Shown: piece after piece, positions 3,260 through 50,310 of the stretch | Layout of the letters: every line of letters begins with the position of its first letter | Numbering within the stretch: the first letter of the stretch is position 1 | Source of the DNA: Bacteroidales bacterium | GTDB lineage: Bacteria > Bacteroidota > Bacteroidia > Bacteroidales > JAADJA01 | NCBI GenBank assembly: GCA_020052415.1 | Contig: JAGVPB010000011.1 | Coordinates: 128,035-192,034, forward strand | Length of the DNA stretch: 64,000 bases | Reading direction: 5' to 3' | Notes under the pieces: generated by a model | Told to the model about the DNA's origin: nothing | The model's input: the letters and a program-made list of their open reading frames with translations, nothing else | Database searches by the model: none | Made by a program: the position numbers and the translations under genes

Positions 3260-6200
3260 TTATAACTTAATGAATTTTTGTGTTTTTTGAACACCCTGAC
3301 TTAATACACTTACGATATAAAACCCTTTTTGCAAATGGATAAGGTCAATTTTCTCTGACAGTCTTCCGTCTGATCCTTTATAATTTTTACTAAAGACGAT
3401 CTGTCCGCTTAATGAAATAATGCTGATTTTTACATCTTCATTTCCGGAACTTTCAAATTCAACATTCAGATAATCGATCACTGGATTGGGAAACAAATTA
3501 AAACTTAGGTTTTCCAATAATTGCTCCGATCCATCCTTGAGTGAATTTTCATCTCCGCCTTCATTTCCCTTTCCAATAATATCAAGTATTTGGATAGTTA
3601 TAACTGCCTGACTCCATAAATTGCCAGCACCGTTATCCATTACTCTGACTGCCAGATGAAATACCGGAATAAATTCATAATTTATAAATCTTACATTCTT
3701 TACTGTTATGACTCCGCTGATATTATTAATTTGAAAAGCATTAAAACTGTTCCCGTTTTGAATGGAATATGTTAATGTCTGGCCTAAGTCAGGATCTGAT
3801 GCAACTACCGACCCAACTATTGTTCCAGTTGGAGAGTTTTCCAGAACAGCAAAGGTTTGATTGCCTATTACAGGATTTTCATTCACATTGATAAGGTTTA
3901 TGGTCATTGTGGCTTGCGATGATAAACTGCCGGCCCCATTATCCTGAACTTTTACTATCAGAGCAAAGGTTGGATTAACTTCGAAATTTATTGCTGAAGG
4001 TGTCGCTACTTTCAGAACCCCTGTGGAAGAAATGATTTGGAATGCATTACCGGTATTACCGCTTAGAATTGAATAGGTCAGCAATTGTCCGGCGTCAGGA
4101 TCAGAAGCTATTACTGTTCCAACGACCGTGCCCGAAACAGAATTTTCAGCAACACTAAAACTCTGGTTAACGATCACAGGATTTTGATTTATATTGCTGA
4201 CCGTTACTGTCATTGTTGCCTGCGACCACAAATTTCCGGCGCCGTTATCCTGTACTTTTACAACAAGAGCAAATGTGGTATTAACAACAAGTGCTGAAGG
4301 CGTAAGAACGGATAATATTCCCGAAGCGGCATTCACCTGAAAAGCGTTACCTGTATTGCCACTTACGATTGAATATGTGAGTGTTTGTCCGGCATCGGGA
4401 TCGGTTGCCACCACAGTACCCACCACGGTGCCTGCAGGTGGAGTTACCGGAACTGTAAAACTCTGGTTGCTTATGAGAGGAGATTCATTGACATTTGTGA
4501 GAACAATGGTCATAGTAGCTTGCGATGACAAACTTCCTGTTCCGTTATCCTGAACCTTTACTACAAGAGAATAACTCGGTGTAACCTCAAAATTCAATGC
4601 AGATTGTGTTGCTACCTTTAGTACGCCTGTCGTTGAAGTGATTTGAAAGGCATTTCCGGTATTGCCGCTTAAAATTGAATATGTGAGGGATTGCCCGGCG
4701 TCGGGATCGGTTGCAGCTACGGTTCCTACCGTTGTGCCTGCTGCAGAATTTTCTGCAATAGAAAAACTTTGGGGACTTACCGTTGGCGGCTCATTCACAT
4801 TAGTAAGATTTATGGTCATCGTCGCCTGTGACGATAGTGTCCCGGCTCCGTTATCCGTTACCCTCACAACAAGTGCAAAGGTCGGATTCGCTTCAAAATT
4901 TAAAGCCGCCTGTGTTGCTACCTTCAAAACTCCTGTTGTGAAAACGATCTGGAATGCATTTCCTGTGTTTCCACTGAGAATAGAATAAGTCAGCGATTGA
5001 CCCGGATCGGGATCAGTAGCAATTACAGTTCCAATGGTTGTATTAGTAACAGAATTCTCTGGAACAGTGAAAACCTGGTTTGCAATTACCGGAGGATTAT
5101 TTGTCGAGCCTCCCCCGCTATTATATTCAAATGCTCCGATATCCCGGATGGCCTCCTGGGGTACAGCTGTACTGTCAAGATCAAAGTTCCATGCCCCTGT
5201 ATATTCCACACCCTGGTTTCTCGCAATGGTTGAATTTGCAGTCAAGTGAAAATCGCCACCCGTAATATTTGCAAAATGAACTATATTATCGAAATATGAA
5301 AGGTCATTTGAATATAGCTCTACATTATTCGTCATAAATACATTCACTCCACCATTCATCCCGTCATTAACAAGGTATGTACCGGTAGGCATCATGAAAA
5401 TATTATTGCGCAGGTACATTGGCTGGTTACCCGAGCTTAGAAAATAAGTTTCGTTGCCTTGCAGGTAGAACCGAACAACATTATTGTTATATTGGTGGGT
5501 ATAAGGTGTCGGAGCACCTGCTGCAACTACAACCCCGATATTATCGAACAGGTTATAGGAAACATTGGCCACTTTGCATCGGAATATACCGCCCGCTGTT
5601 GAAGACTGACCCGGAGGCATTTGTGATCCGATAATCCTGTTGCCGATAAAATTAACTTCGCCAAGGATTTGAAAGTAAAACGCATTACTCGACCACGTTG
5701 GGTGCTGATTCGGAGGATAAATAGTATTGTTCCTGATGGTAGCGCTTTCTGTGTCGGTACGTCCGATAACTATAATTGAAAACTTGTAGGAAGTTCCCCT
5801 CCGGTCAAGAATATTGTCTTCAATTAAAACACCGCCAGCCCTGAGCAAATGAATACAGTCACCATCGCAGCTTCCGTTTTGCAGTTCGAGCCATTTCTGG
5901 TTCACATCATAAACGTGGGTGCCACGGATTGTTATGTTATTATAGGTTGCATTTGTTCTCGATTTTGCGAATATTCCGTCTGTCGAACTGCCGTGAACAA
6001 TACAGTCTTCTATAAGCAGATCTGAAATGTTTCCGGTTTCCGTTTCCCATACTTCCGAATTGATACCTCTCCATCCTCCAACCACTTCACAATCCCTGAT
6101 GGTTTGAAAGCTTGCAGAACGGCCGGCATGGGCGCCAAAACTAACAACTCCTGCAGGACCGTTCACCAATTTATAACCCTCAATAAGAAAATTGGAAGAA

Positions 6201-11960: not shown

Positions 11961-12106
11961 AGCATGGAGCGTGGAGCAGGGAGCAAGGAGCATGGAGCAT
12001 GGAGCAGGGAGCATGGAGCATGGAGTGGGGATAGGGTTCAGAGTTCAGAGTTTTGAGTTTTCAATTTTCAATTTTCAATTTTCAATTTTCAATTTTCAAT
12101 TCACAC
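11961..12106. repeat. 146-bp tract of 7-bp-periodic tandem repeats (locus A)
   Basis: Ten AGCNNGG units (11961-12030), then TTCAGAG x2, TTTTGAG, TTTTCAA x6 and TTCACAC (12037-12106), all in heptamer register. Confidence 0.95.
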
Positions 12107-12241: not shown

Positions 12242-13684
12242 ATGTCTAAATTGAATCAGGACAGGATAATAACGCTAAAGAACCTTTACCGTGACTGGTC
12301 GGGTGAAGATGTGCACAGTTTCGAAAGGATACTGGGTTCTGGTTCGAACCGGAAATATTACAGGCTTATGGGAGAGAACCAAACGGCCATTGGCGTAATC
12401 GGTGAAGATCCTTATGAAAACAGAGCCTTCCTAAGTTTTACTGATCACTTCAGGAAGCACGGACTGAACGTTCCTGAAATTTATTCAACGGATAAAAACG
12501 GTGAAATATATTTACTGCAGGACCTGGGTGATATTTCACTTTTCAGCCTTTTACCGGGAATGACGGGTTCAAAGGATAATATAAGCCGGATCGAAACCCT
12601 TTATAAAAGGATTTTGGATGATTTGATCCGGTTCCAGGTAATTGCAGGGAAGGACCTTGATTATTCCGTTTGTTTTCCGCGTGAAAAGTTCGACAGTCAA
12701 TCAATGCACTGGGATCTGAACTATTTTAAATATTATTATCTGAAACTTGCCTACATCCCGTTTCGGGAACAGGCGCTTGAAAACGATTTTTCAACGCTGT
12801 TGGATTTCCTTTCGATGGCTGACTCCGGTTACTTTATGTACCGCGATTTTCAGGCAAGGAATATTATGCTGCTTAACACAGAACCTTATTTTATTGACTA
12901 CCAGGGCGGGAGAAAGGGCCCTTTACAGTATGATGTTGCATCGCTTTTATTCCAGGCAAAAGCCGAATTGCCGCATTCATTCAGGGAACAGATGCTGGAA
13001 TATTATATTTCAAAACTGAGAGAACATATAGAAGTAGATCGGAATACCTTTATTCCTCTTTATTACGGTTTTGTTCTGATTCGCACATTGCAGGTATTGG
13101 GGGCTTATGGATACAGAGGTTTTTATGAACGCAAACCTCATTTTGTCGAAAGCATAGGTTATGCTTTGAAAAATATAGAATGGTTACTGGAAAATGTAAA
13201 ATATGCTATTGAAGTCCCTGAATTGATAGGATGTTTGGAAGCGATGGTAAAGAAAAATTCCAAACAAAGACAAAAAAAAGGTAATGAAAAGCTGACTGTT
13301 GAAATCAACAGTTTCTCTTACCTTCGGAATGGAATTCCTGAAGATAAAATGGGGCATGGAGGAGGTTTTGTATTCGATTGCCGGGCTTTACCCAATCCCG
13401 GAAGGCTTGAAGAATTCAGGAACCTGAGCGGACTCGATCAGGAAGTAAAGGATTTTTTGAACCGTTACCCGGAAGTGGAAAATTTTAATGACAATATTTT
13501 TGCAGTCGTATGTCAATCAATAGACAATTATATTGAGAAGGGATTCGATCACCTTGTTATCAATTTTGGCTGTACCGGAGGGCAGCACAGGTCGGTGTTC
13601 TGTGCGGAGCGATTATTTGAAAAAATAAAAGGTAAATATAACATCCGGGTAATCCTGAAACACACAATGAAGGAAAACTGGTAA
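12242..13684 (+). CDS. fusion protein: AmgK-like (APH-fold) kinase domain plus RapZ C-terminal domain
   Basis: The N-terminal ~340 aa carry APH/AmgK-type catalytic motifs YRDFQARNIML and FIDYQGG..GPLQYDVASLL. The C-terminal ~130 aa align with E. coli RapZ (FVFDCRALPNPG vs YVFDVRFLPNPH; INFGCTGGQHRSVFCAERL vs VAIGCTGGKHRSVYIAEQL). Confidence 0.75.
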   Translation: MSKLNQDRIITLKNLYRDWSGEDVHSFERILGSGSNRKYYRLMGENQTAIGVIGEDPYENRAFLSFTDHFRKHGLNVPEIYSTDKNGEIYLLQDLGDISLFSLLPGMTGSKDNISRIETLYKRILDDLIRFQVIAGKDLDYSVCFPREKFDSQSMHWDLNYFKYYYLKLAYIPFREQALENDFSTLLDFLSMADSGYFMYRDFQARNIMLLNTEPYFIDYQGGRKGPLQYDVASLLFQAKAELPHSFREQMLEYYISKLREHIEVDRNTFIPLYYGFVLIRTLQVLGAYGYRGFYERKPHFVESIGYALKNIEWLLENVKYAIEVPELIGCLEAMVKKNSKQRQKKGNEKLTVEINSFSYLRNGIPEDKMGHGGGFVFDCRALPNPGRLEEFRNLSGLDQEVKDFLNRYPEVENFNDNIFAVVCQSIDNYIEKGFDHLVINFGCTGGQHRSVFCAERLFEKIKGKYNIRVILKHTMKENW

Positions 13685-13689
13685 AAGTT

Positions 13690-14943
13690 ATGGTTGATAT
13701 AATGTCAATATTAATTACAAATATCAAAAAGCTGGTTCAGACAGAAACTAAACCGGTCAAATTCAGGGCAGGCAGGCAGATGACGGAACTCCCTTTCATT
13801 GAAAATGCTTTTTTAGCCATTAAGGATGGAAAGATCGCCTCATTCGGTGAAATGAATAACTTTAAACTTCAAACTTCAAACTTTGAACTTAACATTGATG
13901 CCTCAGGCAAAATGGTCTTTCCCTCTTTCTGCGACTCGCATACCCACCTTGTTTACCCGGCCAGCCGCGAGATCGAATATGTGGATAAAATCAAGGGATT
14001 ATCCTATGAAGAAATTGCCAAACGCGGAGGCGGCATCCTGAACACAGCCAAAAAGTTGAAAGAAACCACTGTTGCCGAGCTGGTCGAAAGCGCTCTTGAA
14101 CGGCTCGGTGAAATCAAAAAGTTGGGAACCGGAGCAGTAGAAATCAAAAGCGGTTATGGGCTGGATACAGAGCAGGAATTGAAAATGCTTTATGCGATCC
14201 GAAAACTAAAGGAACTGTCGCCGCTGACAATCAAGGCTACATTTCTTGGAGCCCATTCAATTCCTTTGGAATTTCGTGGCAGGCAAAGCGAGTATGTGGA
14301 TCTAATCATCAATGAAATGATACCGATGGTAGCAGCCGAAGACCTGGCGGATTATATTGATGTTTTTTGCGATAAAGGTTTCTTTACCGTTGAAGATACG
14401 GAGAGGATACTGATGGCAGGCATGAAATATGGTTTACGACCCAAAATCCATGCAAATGAACTGGATTATTCAGGCGGCATTCAGGCTGGTGTAAAATATA
14501 ATGCCTTGTCGGTTGATCACCTTGAATATACAGGAGATGCTGAAATCGAAGCATTAATAAACAGCGAAACTATGCCGACCATACTTCCGGGTGCCGCTTT
14601 TTTCCTCGGAATGACTTATGCTCCCGCACGCAGGATGATTGACGCCGGATTGCCGGTAGCAATGGCGAGTGATTTTAATCCGGGTTCTTCACCGTCGGGC
14701 AACATGCAGTTGATTTTATCAATGGCAAGTATTCTTTATAAACTTACTCCTGAAGAGGCCATCAATGCAGTAACTATCAACAGCGCTTATGCCATGGGCC
14801 TGGAAGAAGAACTCGGTAGCATTGCCGTGGGCAAAAAGGCCAACTTCTTTATTACAAAGGAAATCCCCACTGTCGAGTTTATGCCGTATGCTTATGGGAG
14901 CAATAAAGTAGAGACGGTAATTTTAAATGGTGAAGTTCAATAA
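13690..14943 (+). CDS. hutI: imidazolonepropionase
   Basis: Amidohydrolase metal motifs (FCDSHTHLV, IHANELD) with length and order typical of HutI. An alternative start exists at 13702. Confidence 0.9.
   Translation: MVDIMSILITNIKKLVQTETKPVKFRAGRQMTELPFIENAFLAIKDGKIASFGEMNNFKLQTSNFELNIDASGKMVFPSFCDSHTHLVYPASREIEYVDKIKGLSYEEIAKRGGGILNTAKKLKETTVAELVESALERLGEIKKLGTGAVEIKSGYGLDTEQELKMLYAIRKLKELSPLTIKATFLGAHSIPLEFRGRQSEYVDLIINEMIPMVAAEDLADYIDVFCDKGFFTVEDTERILMAGMKYGLRPKIHANELDYSGGIQAGVKYNALSVDHLEYTGDAEIEALINSETMPTILPGAAFFLGMTYAPARRMIDAGLPVAMASDFNPGSSPSGNMQLILSMASILYKLTPEEAINAVTINSAYAMGLEEELGSIAVGKKANFFITKEIPTVEFMPYAYGSNKVETVILNGEVQ
13861..13895. repeat. in-frame heptamer tract inside hutI
   Basis: TTTAAAC TTCAAAC TTCAAAC TTTGAAC TTAACAT encodes FKLQTSNFELN. 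The word family is the same as at intergenic loci C and D. Confidence 0.8.
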
Positions 14944-14982
14944 TTCAAAGTTTCAGGCTCAAGGAAAAATGCAAATTTTTAT

Positions 14983-14990
14983 TAGTTTTG
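14983..14990 (+). promoter_or_regulatory. -7 promoter box (TAGTTTTG) for the ATPase/Toprim cassette
   Basis: Matches TAnnTTTG, with 19 nt before the ATG at 15010. Confidence 0.4.
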
Positions 14991-15009
14991 CTCACTATTC
15001 TGACTTATA

Positions 15010-16002
15010 ATGGCAATTACAAAGATTCAAATTAAAAACTTTAAATCTCTTGTTGATATAACAATAGAAAAACCAAATCCTTTTACTGTATTTGTTGGAC
15101 CAAACGCATCTGGAAAGTCGAATATATTTGAAGCTTTGGAGTTCTATACTTATATTTATAAATATGGGTTTGACGAGGCATTGCGTCTTTTTCTCGGGAA
15201 GGAATCTATTGTTAATTTAAATAATGTTGGTTCTGAGTTTAAAATTCTAATGGATTTTTCAAACGGGTCAACTTATTTAAAAGCAAATAGTAATTTATTT
15301 ATTCCGGAAATTTTTGGATTTGATCCAAAGCAATTAATTCAAATAAAAATGGATCCAACTGAAATTCCATTTTTTAGTGAGTTTTCTAAAATTTTTATTA
15401 ATAATATTGAGAAAGTTAGAATACCTGAAAAAAGTGATTTTAAACTATCAGCCGACGCAAAGAATATTGAAAAGGTACTGAAGCGTGTTCTTCAGTATCC
15501 TGAATTAAGAGAGGAGCTTATTGAATTACTCAGCTTTTTAGTTCCTGATTTTAAAAATCTGGAGATTCGATCTGATGAACTATCAGGAAGTGATAATCTT
15601 TTAATTTATGAAAAACACACAAATAAGCCTTTACCCCGTCATTTAATTTCAGATGGGACTTTTAATATTATTTCATTAATTACTTCTGCTTTTCAGTCAT
15701 ATATTCATAGCCAATTCCAACGACAATTCCTATGTATTGAAGAACCGGAAAACGGTTTACATCCCGAAGCCATAAAAGAGTTAGTTTACTTTTTCAGGGA
15801 ACAATGTGAGAAAAAAGGTCATTACATTTGGTTGACAACGCATTCACAATCTCTGGTGTCAGTGCTAAAACCTGAAGAAATCATAGTTGTGGATAAAATT
15901 AAAGGTGAAACGAAAATAAAACAATTTATTGGCGAAAACTTTCATGGCTTAAAAATGGATGAAGCCTGGTTGTCGAATGTTTTGGGTGGAGGTTTGATAT
16001 GA
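15010..16002 (+). CDS. SMC/ABC-type (AAA_15/AAA_21-like) ATPase, candidate defence-system ATPase
   Basis: Walker A GPNASGKS (aa 30-37), signature-like ISDGT, Walker B/D-loop FLCIEEPENGLHP and H-loop TTHSQS. 330 aa and AT-rich. Confidence 0.8.
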   Translation: MAITKIQIKNFKSLVDITIEKPNPFTVFVGPNASGKSNIFEALEFYTYIYKYGFDEALRLFLGKESIVNLNNVGSEFKILMDFSNGSTYLKANSNLFIPEIFGFDPKQLIQIKMDPTEIPFFSEFSKIFINNIEKVRIPEKSDFKLSADAKNIEKVLKRVLQYPELREELIELLSFLVPDFKNLEIRSDELSGSDNLLIYEKHTNKPLPRHLISDGTFNIISLITSAFQSYIHSQFQRQFLCIEEPENGLHPEAIKELVYFFREQCEKKGHYIWLTTHSQSLVSVLKPEEIIVVDKIKGETKIKQFIGENFHGLKMDEAWLSNVLGGGLI

Positions 16003-16589
16003 TCAAAGTAGGATTTATTGTTGAAGGAAATTCTGAAAAGGTGGTATATGAATCGGAAATTTTTCAGGAATTATTGGAAAGATTTAATCTGACTTGTGTG
16101 GGCGTAATTACTCCAGGATCAAGAACTAAATTCTTTGCTCAGGAACAATTGATAAAGTATTATGAGAATATTAGAAAAAATGAACCTGATAAAATCATTA
16201 TAATCATTGATAAAGAAGGTGATGACGAATGTCTTTATGAAATAAAGCAAAGGATTAGTTGTATTGATCAAATCAATCAGATAAATATAATCCAGGTCAA
16301 AACATTAGAATCCTGGTTTCTTGCCGACTCAGTTGCCTTGTCAAGAGCTTTCCATAGGAACTATAACTATGAAACACCTGAAAGTACTGAAAACCATCCC
16401 TTTGATGAATTGCAAAATGAATTTATAGTAAATACTGAAAGAGGGTTGGGATCGAAGGAATCTACCTTACCCGCGAGGAAAATGGTAAACAAATATAAAT
16501 TTTCAATTGAAAATGCGGCCAAACATCCAAACTGTCCAAGTGCCAGATATTTTTTACAGAAACTCTCCGATTTAAATCGCAATTTATGA
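15999..16589 (+). CDS. small Toprim-like protein (DUF4276-like partner of the ATPase)
   Basis: ATGA overlap with the upstream stop codon. N-terminal FIVEGNSE (Glu9), acidic IIIIIDKEGDDE (aa 66-77) and ESWFLAD. 196 aa. Confidence 0.6.
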   Translation: MIKVGFIVEGNSEKVVYESEIFQELLERFNLTCVGVITPGSRTKFFAQEQLIKYYENIRKNEPDKIIIIIDKEGDDECLYEIKQRISCIDQINQINIIQVKTLESWFLADSVALSRAFHRNYNYETPESTENHPFDELQNEFIVNTERGLGSKESTLPARKMVNKYKFSIENAAKHPNCPSARYFLQKLSDLNRNL

Positions 16590-16639
16590 TTTTGCCCGCA
16601 ATTTATTTTGATTTTAATACCAGCAATTTAACAATTTTC

Positions 16640-16657
16640 CCGAAGGGATACCTTCGG
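16640..16657 (+). other. GC hairpin between the cassette and ftcD
   Basis: CCGAAGG-GATA-CCTTCGG with a 7-bp stem. It lies 50 nt after the cassette stop and 21 nt before the ftcD ATG. There is no T-run. Confidence 0.5.
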
Positions 16658-16678
16658 CAAGCAAATCAACAATAGAAT

Positions 16679-18373
16679 ATGAAGCAATTAATCGAATGTG
16701 TTCCGAACATCAGCGAGGGAAGAGATTCAAATATAATTAAACAAGTAACGGATGTCGTGGAAACCGTTGAAGGAGTGAGACTTATTGACGTTGATCCCGG
16801 GAAAGCCACCAACAGAACTGTGATCACTTTTGTTGGACCGCCTGAAGAAGTCTGTGAAGCTGCATTCCGGTTGGTAAGGAAAGCAGCAAGCCTGATTGAC
16901 ATGAGCAGGCATCATGGCGAACATCCGCGGTTTGGAGCAACTGATGTATGCCCGCTCGTTCCCGTGGCTAATATAACCATGGACGAAGTGGCAGGATATG
17001 CCCGCAAGCTTGGCAAAAGGATAGGTGAGGAGCTTGGAATTCCGGTGTATAATTATGAATTTGCCGCTTCAAAACCTGAAAGAAAAAACCTGGCAAATTG
17101 CCGTTCTGGGGAGTATGAAGGTTTAAAGGAAAAACTTTCAAACCCTGATTGGAAACCTGATTTCGGTCCGGATGAATTTAATGAACAGGTCGCCAAAACA
17201 GGAGCCACAGCAGTCGGTGCAAGAAATTTCCTTGTCGCTTATAATTTTAATCTGAACACAACTTCAACCCGGCGAGCCAATGCCATTGCTTATGATGTAC
17301 GTGAAAAAGGAAGGGAAAAGCGTGAGGGCGACACGGTAACAGGCAAAATCGTGAGGGATGAAAAGGGAAATACTGTTTTTATTCCGGGAACTTTAAAGAG
17401 CACTAAAGCCATCGGCTGGTTCATAGAAGAATACGGGATAGCACAGATATCAATGAATATGACCGACATCACGGTAACTTCGGTACATAAGGCATTCGAT
17501 GAAGTTTGCAGGGCTGCCAATGAAAGAGGTGTGAGGGTTACTGGTTCGGAACTGGTTGGTGTGATACCTTTGAAGGCTATGCTGGATGCGGGAAAGCATT
17601 ATCTGAGAAAACAGCAGCGTTCGATTGGAATTCCCGACATGGAGATCATAAGGATTGCAGTTAAATCTTTAGGCCTCGATGAGCTTGCACCTTTCGACCC
17701 GGGTAAAAAAATCATTGAATATATTCTTGAGGGTAAAAATGAAAAGAAGCTGGTTAACCTGACGATGACTGGCTTTGTAGAAGAAACAGCTTCCGAATCT
17801 CCTGCTCCGGGTGGCGGTTCCATTTCAGCTGCAATGGGTGCGATGGGCGCTGCATTGGGAACCATGGTTGCGAACCTGACTTCTCATAAAAGAGGATATG
17901 ACGATCGCTGGGAAGAGTTTTCTGATTGGGCGGTAAAGGGAAAATATTATCAGGAAGAGTTGCTGAAAATGGTGGATGAAGACACGCACGCCTTTAATAA
18001 GATCATGGATGCTTTCGGACTGCCGAAAAAAAGTGAGATGGAAAAAACCTTCCGGAATAAAGCCATACAGGATGCGACCAAATATGCCATTGAGGTGCCT
18101 TTCAGAGTGATGAACCTTTGTTATGAATCAATGGAGGTGATGAAAGCTATGGCTGGGTTCGGGAATCCCAATTCGGTTTCGGATGCAGGTGTCGGAGCCA
18201 TTGCTGCACTGGCAGGAGTGAAGGGAGCATACCTTAACGTAAAGATCAATGCTGGTGGACTCGATGATAAAGATTACGTTAAAGAAATCATTTCGAAAGG
18301 AGGTAAAATACAGGAAAAGGCTGTTGTGTTGCAAAAGGAGATTTTGGATATTGTTGACGCTAAGATCGGATAG
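16679..18373 (+). CDS. ftcD: bifunctional glutamate formimidoyltransferase / formimidoyltetrahydrofolate cyclodeaminase
   Basis: The N-terminus MKQLIECVPNISEGRD is the hallmark of the transferase domain. The C-terminal cyclodeaminase region has SPAPGGGS. 564 aa. Confidence 0.9.
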   Translation: MKQLIECVPNISEGRDSNIIKQVTDVVETVEGVRLIDVDPGKATNRTVITFVGPPEEVCEAAFRLVRKAASLIDMSRHHGEHPRFGATDVCPLVPVANITMDEVAGYARKLGKRIGEELGIPVYNYEFAASKPERKNLANCRSGEYEGLKEKLSNPDWKPDFGPDEFNEQVAKTGATAVGARNFLVAYNFNLNTTSTRRANAIAYDVREKGREKREGDTVTGKIVRDEKGNTVFIPGTLKSTKAIGWFIEEYGIAQISMNMTDITVTSVHKAFDEVCRAANERGVRVTGSELVGVIPLKAMLDAGKHYLRKQQRSIGIPDMEIIRIAVKSLGLDELAPFDPGKKIIEYILEGKNEKKLVNLTMTGFVEETASESPAPGGGSISAAMGAMGAALGTMVANLTSHKRGYDDRWEEFSDWAVKGKYYQEELLKMVDEDTHAFNKIMDAFGLPKKSEMEKTFRNKAIQDATKYAIEVPFRVMNLCYESMEVMKAMAGFGNPNSVSDAGVGAIAALAGVKGAYLNVKINAGGLDDKDYVKEIISKGGKIQEKAVVLQKEILDIVDAKIG

Positions 18374-21730: not shown

Positions 21731-21924
21731 AATTCACCAATTCAACCGGTTCAACCAAATCGGTCCACGAATTACACGAATGTCACGAATTTACTGATTC
21801 AACCAGTTCTACAAACCAGTTAGCAAATAGGCAGTCGGCAATGAGCAAGATTAAACTCTGAGCCCGGAATACAAAACGGTCAAACCAGTAACCAGAAACA
21901 AGCAACCAGTAACCAGCAACAGAT
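21731..21924. repeat. mosaic periodic-repeat locus B (9-bp array, conserved modules, 7-bp array)
   Basis: 9-bp-periodic AATTCAACC/GGTTCAACC and CACGAATNN units run over 21731-21800. Conserved modules lie at 21834-21883. Heptamers AACCAGT AACCAGA AACAAGC AACCAGT AACCAGC AACAGAT run over 21883-21924. Confidence 0.85.
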
Positions 21925-50170: not shown

Positions 50171-50310
50171 TCCAGAGTTCAGAGATCTGAGTTTATTTGC
50201 CGACGGCTTACTGGTTCCTTGTTACTGGTTACCTGTTACTGGTTACTGGTTCCGTGTTCTGAGTTCCGTGTTCCTGGTTCTGTGTTCGAGTGTCAAGTTG
50301 TTGACCGTTG
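50171..50310. repeat. mosaic periodic-repeat locus F (7-bp array)
   Basis: TCCAGAG TTCAGAG ATCTGAG, then TTGCCGAC (50197-50204), then 13 consecutive NGTTNNN heptamers over 50213-50303 (GGTTCCT TGTTACT GGTTACC TGTTACT GGTTACT GGTTCCG ...). Confidence 0.9.

Follow-up and report, generated by a model that had tools for sequence, protein, structure and literature searches.

Why should hutI and ftcD, two genes of one histidine-catabolic pathway lying on the same strand, be separated by 1.7 kb of unrelated coding sequence? The question arises from a 64,000-nucleotide stretch of Bacteroidales bacterium DNA (contig JAGVPB010000011.1 of GenBank assembly GCA_020052415.1, positions 128,035 to 192,034), hereafter the window, in which a two-gene cassette occupies the interval 14944-16678 between hutI and ftcD. 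The cassette encodes an ABC ATPase (open reading frame 1, ORF1) and a small DUF4276-type partner (ORF2), and our analysis shows that it belongs to HEC-01, a candidate anti-phage family catalogued in PADLOC. It is an insertion into an ancestrally adjacent hutI-ftcD pair, and this insertion is real but ancient, having been inherited vertically with both of its genes under purifying selection. Loci from other genomes used for comparison are given L numbers, and the features of the window locus are as follows.

13690-14943, + strand: hutI (imidazolonepropionase), the 5' flank; Pfam Amidohydro_1/3, 80-84% identical to the hutI preceding the cassette in L001 and L007.
14983-14990, + strand: promoter-like TAnnTTTG box (Bacteroidota -7 type), TAGTTTTG, 20 nt 5' of the ORF1 ATG.
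15010-16002, + strand: ORF1, the HEC-01A ABC ATPase (OLD/AAA_15/AAA_21 type), 330 aa, from profiles, motifs and predicted fold.
15999-16002, + strand: ATGA, in which the stop of ORF1 overlaps the start of ORF2 (translational coupling).
15999-16589, + strand: ORF2, the HEC-01B DUF4276 protein, a putative Toprim-like metal-dependent nuclease, 196 aa.
16548-16604, + strand: 3' end of ORF2 with the first 15 nt downstream, found as a remnant at loci that have lost the cassette and duplicated in L001.
16640-16657, + strand: GC-rich 7-bp hairpin CCGAAGG-GATA-CCTTCGG (GATA loop), 21 nt 5' of the ftcD ATG.
16679-18373, + strand: ftcD (formiminotransferase-cyclodeaminase), the 3' flank; Pfam FTCD_N, FTCD and FTCD_C.

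A sequence-only reading of this DNA had given the gene coordinates, motifs, ATGA overlap, TAnnTTTG box and hairpin, and all were present where it placed them. Profile searches also agreed with its description of a pair unrelated to histidine catabolism, in which an ABC ATPase is translationally coupled to a small partner with acidic motifs.

ORF1 is an ABC (not AAA+) ATPase of the OLD/PtuA/Rad50 type. It carries GPNASGKS at residues 30-37, ISDGT at 213-217, FLCIEEPENGLHP at 240-252 and TTHSQS at 276-281, and in 48 of 48 homologs the Walker A residues G30, G35, K36 and S37, the signature residues S214 and G216, the Walker B/D-loop residues E244-E245-P-E-N-G249 and the H-loop residue H278 were invariant. 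Pfam returned AAA_21 (1e-23) and AAA_15 (5e-23), while no NCBIfam model was matched above its cutoff, MAD3 reaching 79.7 bits where 420 are required. When the AlphaFold2 (AF2) model of ORF1 (predicted local distance difference test score, pLDDT, of 89.5) was compared with known structures using Foldseek, the leading matches were PtuA (of Septu as well as retron systems), Rad50, SMC heads and an OLD nuclease (E 1e-13 to 1e-10), and AriA lay outside the top 50. Likewise, hhalign matched the ORF1 family profile to the ATPase of P2 Old with 95.7% probability. We also observed that the Walker B motif (window 15739-15744, E244-E245) is of the form hhhhEE and not the usual hhhhDE, again in 48 of 48 homologs, whereas the corresponding residues of P2 Old are the canonical D-E.

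Judged by its residues, ORF2 appears to be a DUF4276 protein with Toprim-style acidic residues, a putative Toprim-like nuclease. Its motifs are FIVEGNSE at residues 6-13 (containing Glu9), IIIIIDKEGDDE at 66-77 and ESWFLAD at 104-110, and the residues E9, D71 (of a D-x-D/E motif), E104, W106-F-L-A-D110, E128, H176, C179 and S181 were invariant in all 50 homologs compared. The match to Pfam DUF4276 (PF14103; E = 1e-6) scored 29.6 bits, 0.6 below the gathering cutoff of 30.2, and a protein identical to ORF2 (P0001) carries a precomputed PF14103.12 assignment. When the 50 homologs were scanned against Pfam, DUF4276 was found in 48 (E <= 0.01), RloB in five and OLD-like_TOPRIM in four. Searches of ORF2 itself against Pfam and PADLOC at E <= 0.1 gave no match to DUF4435 or AriB, RloB was likewise unmatched in these two collections, and no NCBIfam model was matched. 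The proposal that ORF2 is of the DUF4276 rather than the DUF4435 type therefore holds. DUF4276 has been placed in the Toprim superfamily in published work, and HEC-01B has been described as a TOPRIM protein (Payne et al., bioRxiv 10.1101/2024.01.29.577857). The AF2 model of ORF2 (pLDDT 94.6) has a core of four beta-alpha units with acidic residues at the strand ends; comparison with the viral folds of BFVD placed an RloB-like protein on top at a marginal E of 2e-3, and a search of PDB sequences with the ORF2 profile found nothing. Homology speaks for a DUF4276-like character of ORF2; the searches for a Toprim fold, given below, were not significant. A separate observation concerns the C-terminus, where residues 172-185 (window 16512-16553) form a conserved NAAxHPNCPSAxYF segment that includes H176, C179 and S181 and lies beyond the Pfam DUF4276 match.

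Comparison with PADLOC assigned the pair to a named family. ORF1 matched HEC-01A (PDLC04176) at 8.8e-86, with the best non-HEC family, PDC-M07A, at 3e-27, AriA at 1.9e-26, AbiLi at 3e-25, and AriA, AbiLi, mad3, Old and GajA all falling between 1e-17 and 1e-26. ORF2 matched HEC-01B (PDLC04191) at 1.7e-46, an alignment spanning residues 1-193 of its 196, and PDLC04185 at 2.9e-42; other named effectors in PADLOC were unmatched, with mad4 and AbiLii absent. HEC-01 (Hma-embedded candidate 01; PADLOC-DB v2) is described as an ABC ATPase together with a TOPRIM protein (bioRxiv 10.1101/2024.01.29.577857), and the window cassette has the same two-gene form, with both proteins matching near full length, the A and B profiles matched, the genes adjacent and co-oriented, and the A protein having an ABC fold. 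An overlap of the ORF1-ORF2 type, of 4 or 7 nt, is kept in nearly all homologous cassettes regardless of genomic context. The HEC-01A and HEC-01B sub-models matched by the window pair were also matched by a BREX-embedded pair from E. coli (3e-182 and 1e-99), by a pair embedded in a type III restriction-modification (R-M) system (L170) and by a Spirosoma pair. The window cassette differs from described HEC-01 members in having an ATPase that falls ~40 aa short of the model length (330 aa versus 371 positions, matched in two stretches), in lying within the hutI|ftcD housekeeping pair and not in Hma, BREX or R-M, and in being chromosomal, vertically inherited and long-resident. Embedding in a known defence system, through which Payne et al. 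defined the family from genes lying inside Hma, is not seen for the window cassette and is seen for distant members only.

The sequence-only reading had labelled the pair a candidate PARIS/AbiL-type module with an uncharacterised partner. That label did not survive, as HEC-01A leads the other matches by 60 orders of magnitude and HEC-01B by 40, and the variant cannot be called uncharacterised: PADLOC names it HEC-01, and two phage tests of the family have been published, one negative and the other positive. There is a resemblance to PARIS: both combine an AAA_15/21-type ABC ATPase with a separate nuclease, of the Toprim superfamily in PARIS and putatively so in the window, and PARIS is the source of the likely sensor-scaffold and effector logic discussed below. 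In the PARIS paper, DUF4276-partnered systems (MADS3-4) and AbiL were grouped with the ABC-ATPase/TOPRIM systems in the same ATPase tree. The two differ in that the AriB partner is DUF4435 and the window partner DUF4276, in that ORF1 has 330 aa and AriA ~480 aa, and in that the window cassette type is essentially not phage- or satellite-borne. PARIS itself was rejected on the AriA score of 1.9e-26 versus 8.8e-86 for HEC-01A, with AriB and DUF4435 unmatched by ORF2. AbiL and RloA-RloB also pair an ATPase with a small Toprim-like partner, and RloB was matched by five of the 50 ORF2 homologs; AbiL was rejected because AbiLi matched at a generic ATPase level (3e-25) and AbiLii was unmatched by ORF2. 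Mad3 and Mad4 of MADS likewise comprise an AAA_15/21 ATPase and a DUF4276 protein. Here MAD3 fell far below its cutoff, mad4 was unmatched and neither the methyltransferase nor the other MADS genes were adjacent, the window neighbours of the cassette being hutI, ftcD, a peptidase gene and others. In the OLD family (P2 Old, Gabija GajA), to whose P2 Old ATPase ORF1 is homologous, ATPase and Toprim are fused, whereas they form two separate ORFs in the window. Septu PtuA is, with Rad50 and OLD, among the structures closest to ORF1, but the window nuclease is DUF4276 and neither the OLD Toprim nor the PtuB HNH domain.

That the cassette was inserted between genes once adjacent is indicated by relatives lacking it. 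In a GTDB scan with ftcD, of which the best 80 of 592 loci (Bacteroidota) were examined, the nearest matches were Bacteroidales metagenome-assembled genomes (MAGs), and hutI and ftcD lay 25-250 bp apart in ~20 of these best 80 loci, none of which carried the cassette. Two further apparent cassette-free relatives, L010 and L012, proved to be rearranged loci and not empty sites. The nearest ORF2 homologs (76%, 61% and 61% identity) share an identical order of APH/RapZ_C, hutI, ATPase, DUF4276 and ftcD, and 12 further metagenome loci have the cassette directly 5' of ftcD with ORF2 identity down to 39-43%. Together the hutI/ftcD-context loci (L001-L008, L089, L097-L100, L103/104, L111, L114 and L116) represent about ten diverged Bacteroidales lineages, and the distance from cassette to ftcD ranges from 42 to 123 nt. 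Universal conservation of this order with matching composition, which would have spoken against an insertion, was not seen; the arrangement is patchy and the composition unlike that of the flanks.

The cassette has diverged along with its flanks. Between the window and L001, identities were 84% for hutI, 89% for ftcD, 79% for ORF1 and 76% for ORF2; between the window and L007 they were 81%, 81%, 73% and 61%, respectively; and between L005 and L007 they were 91% for ftcD, 77% for ORF1 and 69% for ORF2, with no value for hutI. Pairwise identities of cassette and flanks yield one grouping, and the cassettes with the ftcD context group as a single clade in the cassette tree and broadly mirror the ftcD tree. 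Both genes are under purifying selection, with pN of 0.10-0.25 and dN/dS of at most ~0.13, values that are upper-bound style estimates because synonymous sites are saturated. We also observed a phylogenetically separate cassette lineage directly 5' of ftcD in L157, L161 and L162, whose ftcD is 60-64% identical to that of the window, which suggests an independent arrival at the ftcD junction.

Composition had been offered as support for a recent insertion. The G+C (GC) content of the cassette interval is 0.315, compared with 0.434 for hutI, 0.450 for ftcD and 0.398 for the whole window; nowhere in the 64-kb window is GC lower than in this interval, and only 0.08% of windows of the same size are equally low. 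The reported contrast with the flanks (0.315 versus 0.43-0.45) therefore stands, with the hand-counted 48% for the flanks slightly too high. At third codon positions (GC3), ORF1 and ORF2 have 0.23 and 0.28 and the flanks 0.44 and 0.42. The same deficit occurs in four of four diverged ftcD-context lineages (0.19-0.32 versus 0.34-0.49) and in almost every other host, including Spirosoma (0.48 and 0.47 versus 0.70 and 0.66) and the R-M-embedded L170 (0.38 versus 0.60 and 0.65). Low GC3 is thus a family trait across hosts, and the transfer cannot be dated by GC. The insertion claimed earlier was accordingly confirmed by the ~20 relatives with adjacent hutI and ftcD, while its recency, read from an AT-richness that diverged lineages share, was not. 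The idea that the pair is a PARIS/AbiL-type defence island recently acquired by horizontal transfer, which would account for the low GC and draws on the generic AriA and AbiLi matches at ~1e-25, is contradicted by the evidence and very improbable: HEC-01A and HEC-01B are far the better matches with AriB, DUF4435 and AbiLii unmatched, the insertion is shared by lineages with ORF2 identity down to 41% and co-diverges with its flanks, and the GC3 deficit is family-wide, even in hosts with a GC3 of 0.70.

Losses of the cassette have left scars. In L074 (1389-1619), a 76-aa ORF between hutI and ftcD is a deletion scar that keeps the cassette start and stop, with ~45 N-terminal residues of ORF1 (including GPNASGKS) fused in frame to ~27 C-terminal residues of ORF2 (including NAAKHPGCKSAKYF). 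In the 'empty' sister lineage L009, the 173-bp hutI-ftcD spacer can be aligned with ~55 nt from the end of ORF2 and the sequence downstream, and the start of L011 is a decayed ORF2 3' end. In L001, a second copy of the ORF2 3'-end segment (equivalent to 16548-16604) stands in front of ftcD. The same locus, like L002-L004, has an additional 364-aa gene between ORF2 and ftcD (L001:4713-5807) with a PP-loop-like SGGKDS motif by our own reading and no match in Pfam or PADLOC; since copies of the ~55-nt ORF2 3' end flank this gene in L001, a second insertion at this spot is suggested. Other Bacteroidales (L016, L078, L019, L025 and L059) carry different cargo in the hutI-ftcD gap, comprising AT-rich 23S_rRNA_IVP genes in two independent lineages, PDDEXK_3, a HigB/HigA toxin-antitoxin pair, DUF4197, and cutC with a Na/Ca exchanger. 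The hutI|ftcD junction is therefore a permissive hotspot for small cargo.

These junctions bear on whether the cassette is a selfish addiction or anchoring element without host benefit, either because the nuclease is a toxin checked by the ATPase or because the downstream gene has come to depend on the cassette promoter or read-through. In every case the cassette shares the orientation of the downstream gene and lies very close to it (7-30 nt from tktC, 42-123 nt from ftcD), and the junction in relatives collects HigB/HigA, 23S_rRNA_IVP and PDDEXK_3. What the L074 scar retains are exactly the two ends of the cassette, the 5' one with start codon and N-terminus and the 3' one, as would be expected if these ends carry signals that ftcD needs. 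However, clean or near-clean losses are found in L009 and at the many loci with adjacent hutI and ftcD, and both proteins have invariant catalytic sites under purifying selection, which mere promoter dependence does not require. We consider a selfish element unlikely.

The candidate promoter is the TAnnTTTG box at 14983-14990, which from its sequence may be the cassette's own and which recurs at the matching relative position as TACTTTTG in L001, TATTTTTG in L007 and TACCTTTG in L089. The hairpin at 16640-16657 had been taken to mark the end of the cassette. It is poor evidence for a terminator, because it has no T-tract, the terminator scan made no call there and it is not conserved among related loci; the 101 nt around it fold only a little more stably than shuffles (z = -1.9). 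Scans for sigma-70 promoters and terminators performed at chance level. No transposon-like terminal direct or inverted repeats bounding the cassette were found, a tRNA search found none, and an Rfam scan of the window gave no match, so that a known riboswitch is absent from the spacer 5' of ftcD. On the other side of hutI, window 12242-13684 encodes a 480-aa protein in which an APH-type phosphotransferase domain is fused to a RapZ C-terminal domain (PF22740); the gene is directly 5' of hutI also in L001 and L007, where its identity of 61-71% shows it to be faster-evolving than the cassette. We further observed intergenic heptamer tandem arrays in the window at 11961-12025, 12058-12101 and 21882-21920 (AGCATGG x9, TTTTCAA x6 and TTACTGG x6) and a 14-mer array at 50208-50291. 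The first two lie in the divergent promoter region 5' of the APH/RapZ_C gene, and comparable heptamer runs lie beside the cassettes of L158 and L011.

Cassettes of this family are also found at other junctions. Among 87 classified loci, 40 have the cassette between the two halves of a split transketolase and 12 have it 5' of ftcD, with 33 in other or unknown contexts and two too short to classify. Five Cytophagales genomes, those of Arcicella, Emticicia and Spirosoma together with two MAGs, have it between Transketolase_N and Transket_pyr on the same strand, and a sister clade in Cytophagales has it invariably between the transketolase halves, 7-30 nt from the downstream tktC. Further contexts confirmed with Pfam were 3' of hutU, between moeA and ffh, 5' of sucD, rsgA or a phosphoglucomutase gene, and beside deaD. 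Each context corresponds to about one clade of the cassette tree, which implies that insertion was rare and that long periods of vertical descent came after it. Distant members lie between the methylase and Res genes of type III R-M systems (L170 and L174) and within BREX-1 (L096), on 11 E. coli plasmids between pglX and pglZ. Two observations concern genes beside cassettes. In L137, which has the transketolase context, a second ORF1-like ATPase (4574-5566; AAA_21/AAA_15) directly follows the first cassette and may have arisen by duplication or belong to a second cassette in tandem. A Uma2-family gene adjoins the cassette in two unrelated contexts, in L091 of Emticicia agri (5434-6021, where tktN precedes it and the ATPase follows) and in L146 (4730-5392, 3' of the cassette).

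On balance we favour, with moderate confidence, an HEC-01 ATPase-nuclease module whose nuclease is held in complex and which entered hutI|ftcD once, long ago, and descended vertically thereafter. If PARIS, OLD/Gabija and Septu are taken as models, the ATPase would form a complex with the nuclease and keep it inactive until it is licensed, whether by a cue from the phage or by a conformational change that depends on ATP. The nuclease may then bind metal through E9, D71/E73, E104 and D110 and cleave nucleic acid, either DNA or tRNA, which would halt infection. The single entry would have occurred in the ancestor of a Bacteroidales clade, with the low-GC codon composition retained throughout descent and internal deletion removing the cassette from some lineages. 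Sister clades would have behaved likewise at other co-oriented housekeeping junctions, chiefly the split transketolase of Cytophagales. As to defence, a 2026 study reported protection of E. coli B by an HEC-01 representative against one or more of the phages T4, T5 and T7 (PMC12881386). HEC-01 is abundant in genomes from the environment, and a survey of cold-seep genomes ranked it within the top 12 system types by abundance. Since one phage test was negative and the other positive, the defence activity of HEC-01 is weakly established.

Several points weigh against this account. The HEC-01 representative of Payne et al. protected against none of the phages used there (bioRxiv 10.1101/2024.01.29.577857), and the proposed mechanism is drawn from analogy. 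Foldseek comparison of the ORF2 model with PDB gave only generic Rossmann-like matches, none of them significant and the best at E 0.03; AriB scored E 0.19 (TM 0.28) and topoisomerase Toprim domains ~E 0.2. Aligning the ORF2 family with P2 Old using hhalign recovered the 13-residue first motif alone (FIVEGNSE to LLVEGKTE, E 0.087). None of the 10 proteins flanking the window cassette had a meaningful PADLOC match, the cassette was unmatched in GenBank phages and gave two weak partial matches only in IMG/VR, and it does not show the rapid turnover usual for defence genes. Finally, the empty junctions come from the best 80 of 592 loci as noted, and the cassette and ftcD trees are neighbour-joining trees without support values.

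Some of these points would be explained if the cassette were a domesticated non-defence module, acting in a RecF/RecR-like DNA transaction, RecF and RecR likewise being one ABC ATPase plus one Toprim protein, or in RNase M5-like RNA processing. Such a role would account for the very long retention inside housekeeping operons. It is consistent with synteny that is stable across genera (40 transketolase loci, at least 12 ftcD loci, moeA|ffh and sucD), one clade per context, strong purifying selection and divergence rates inside the range of neighbouring genes, as well as with the lack of defence neighbours, the near-absence from viruses and the negative phage test of the original HEC-01 study. 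Domestication fits poorly, however, with the patchy distribution and repeated loss among close relatives, the persistence of a foreign codon composition, the insertion at unrelated sites without a common functional theme, the embedding of the same sub-family in BREX-1 and type III R-M systems, and the one positive phage assay (PMC12881386). We therefore regard it as improbable.

The HEC-01 architecture was already named and catalogued, and the window cassette is a further member. Its long co-oriented residence in housekeeping gene pairs, the keeping of AT-rich codons and the deletion scars were not found described in the HEC-01 literature that we searched. Two cautions follow, namely that low GC gives no date for an insertion and that embedding in an operon alone is no proof of shared function. 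It is also possible, although we consider it unlikely, that this branch of HEC-01 is a resident of operon interiors and not a roaming defence-island gene, and persists over genus- to family-level timescales through the operon's dependence on it for expression or through a non-defence nucleic-acid function (e.g. RecF/RecR-like). If so, 'guilt by embedding' would partly reflect a preference for insertion and retention in operon interiors and not shared immunity. The locus is a natural experiment in which a cassette has become fixed at a defined junction, with natural empty sites and scars available for comparison, and there are cultured Cytophagales counterparts in Spirosoma montaniterrae, Arcicella lustrica and Emticicia agri. 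With it one can examine if a module of this kind truly serves immunity, and the reasons for its long retention.

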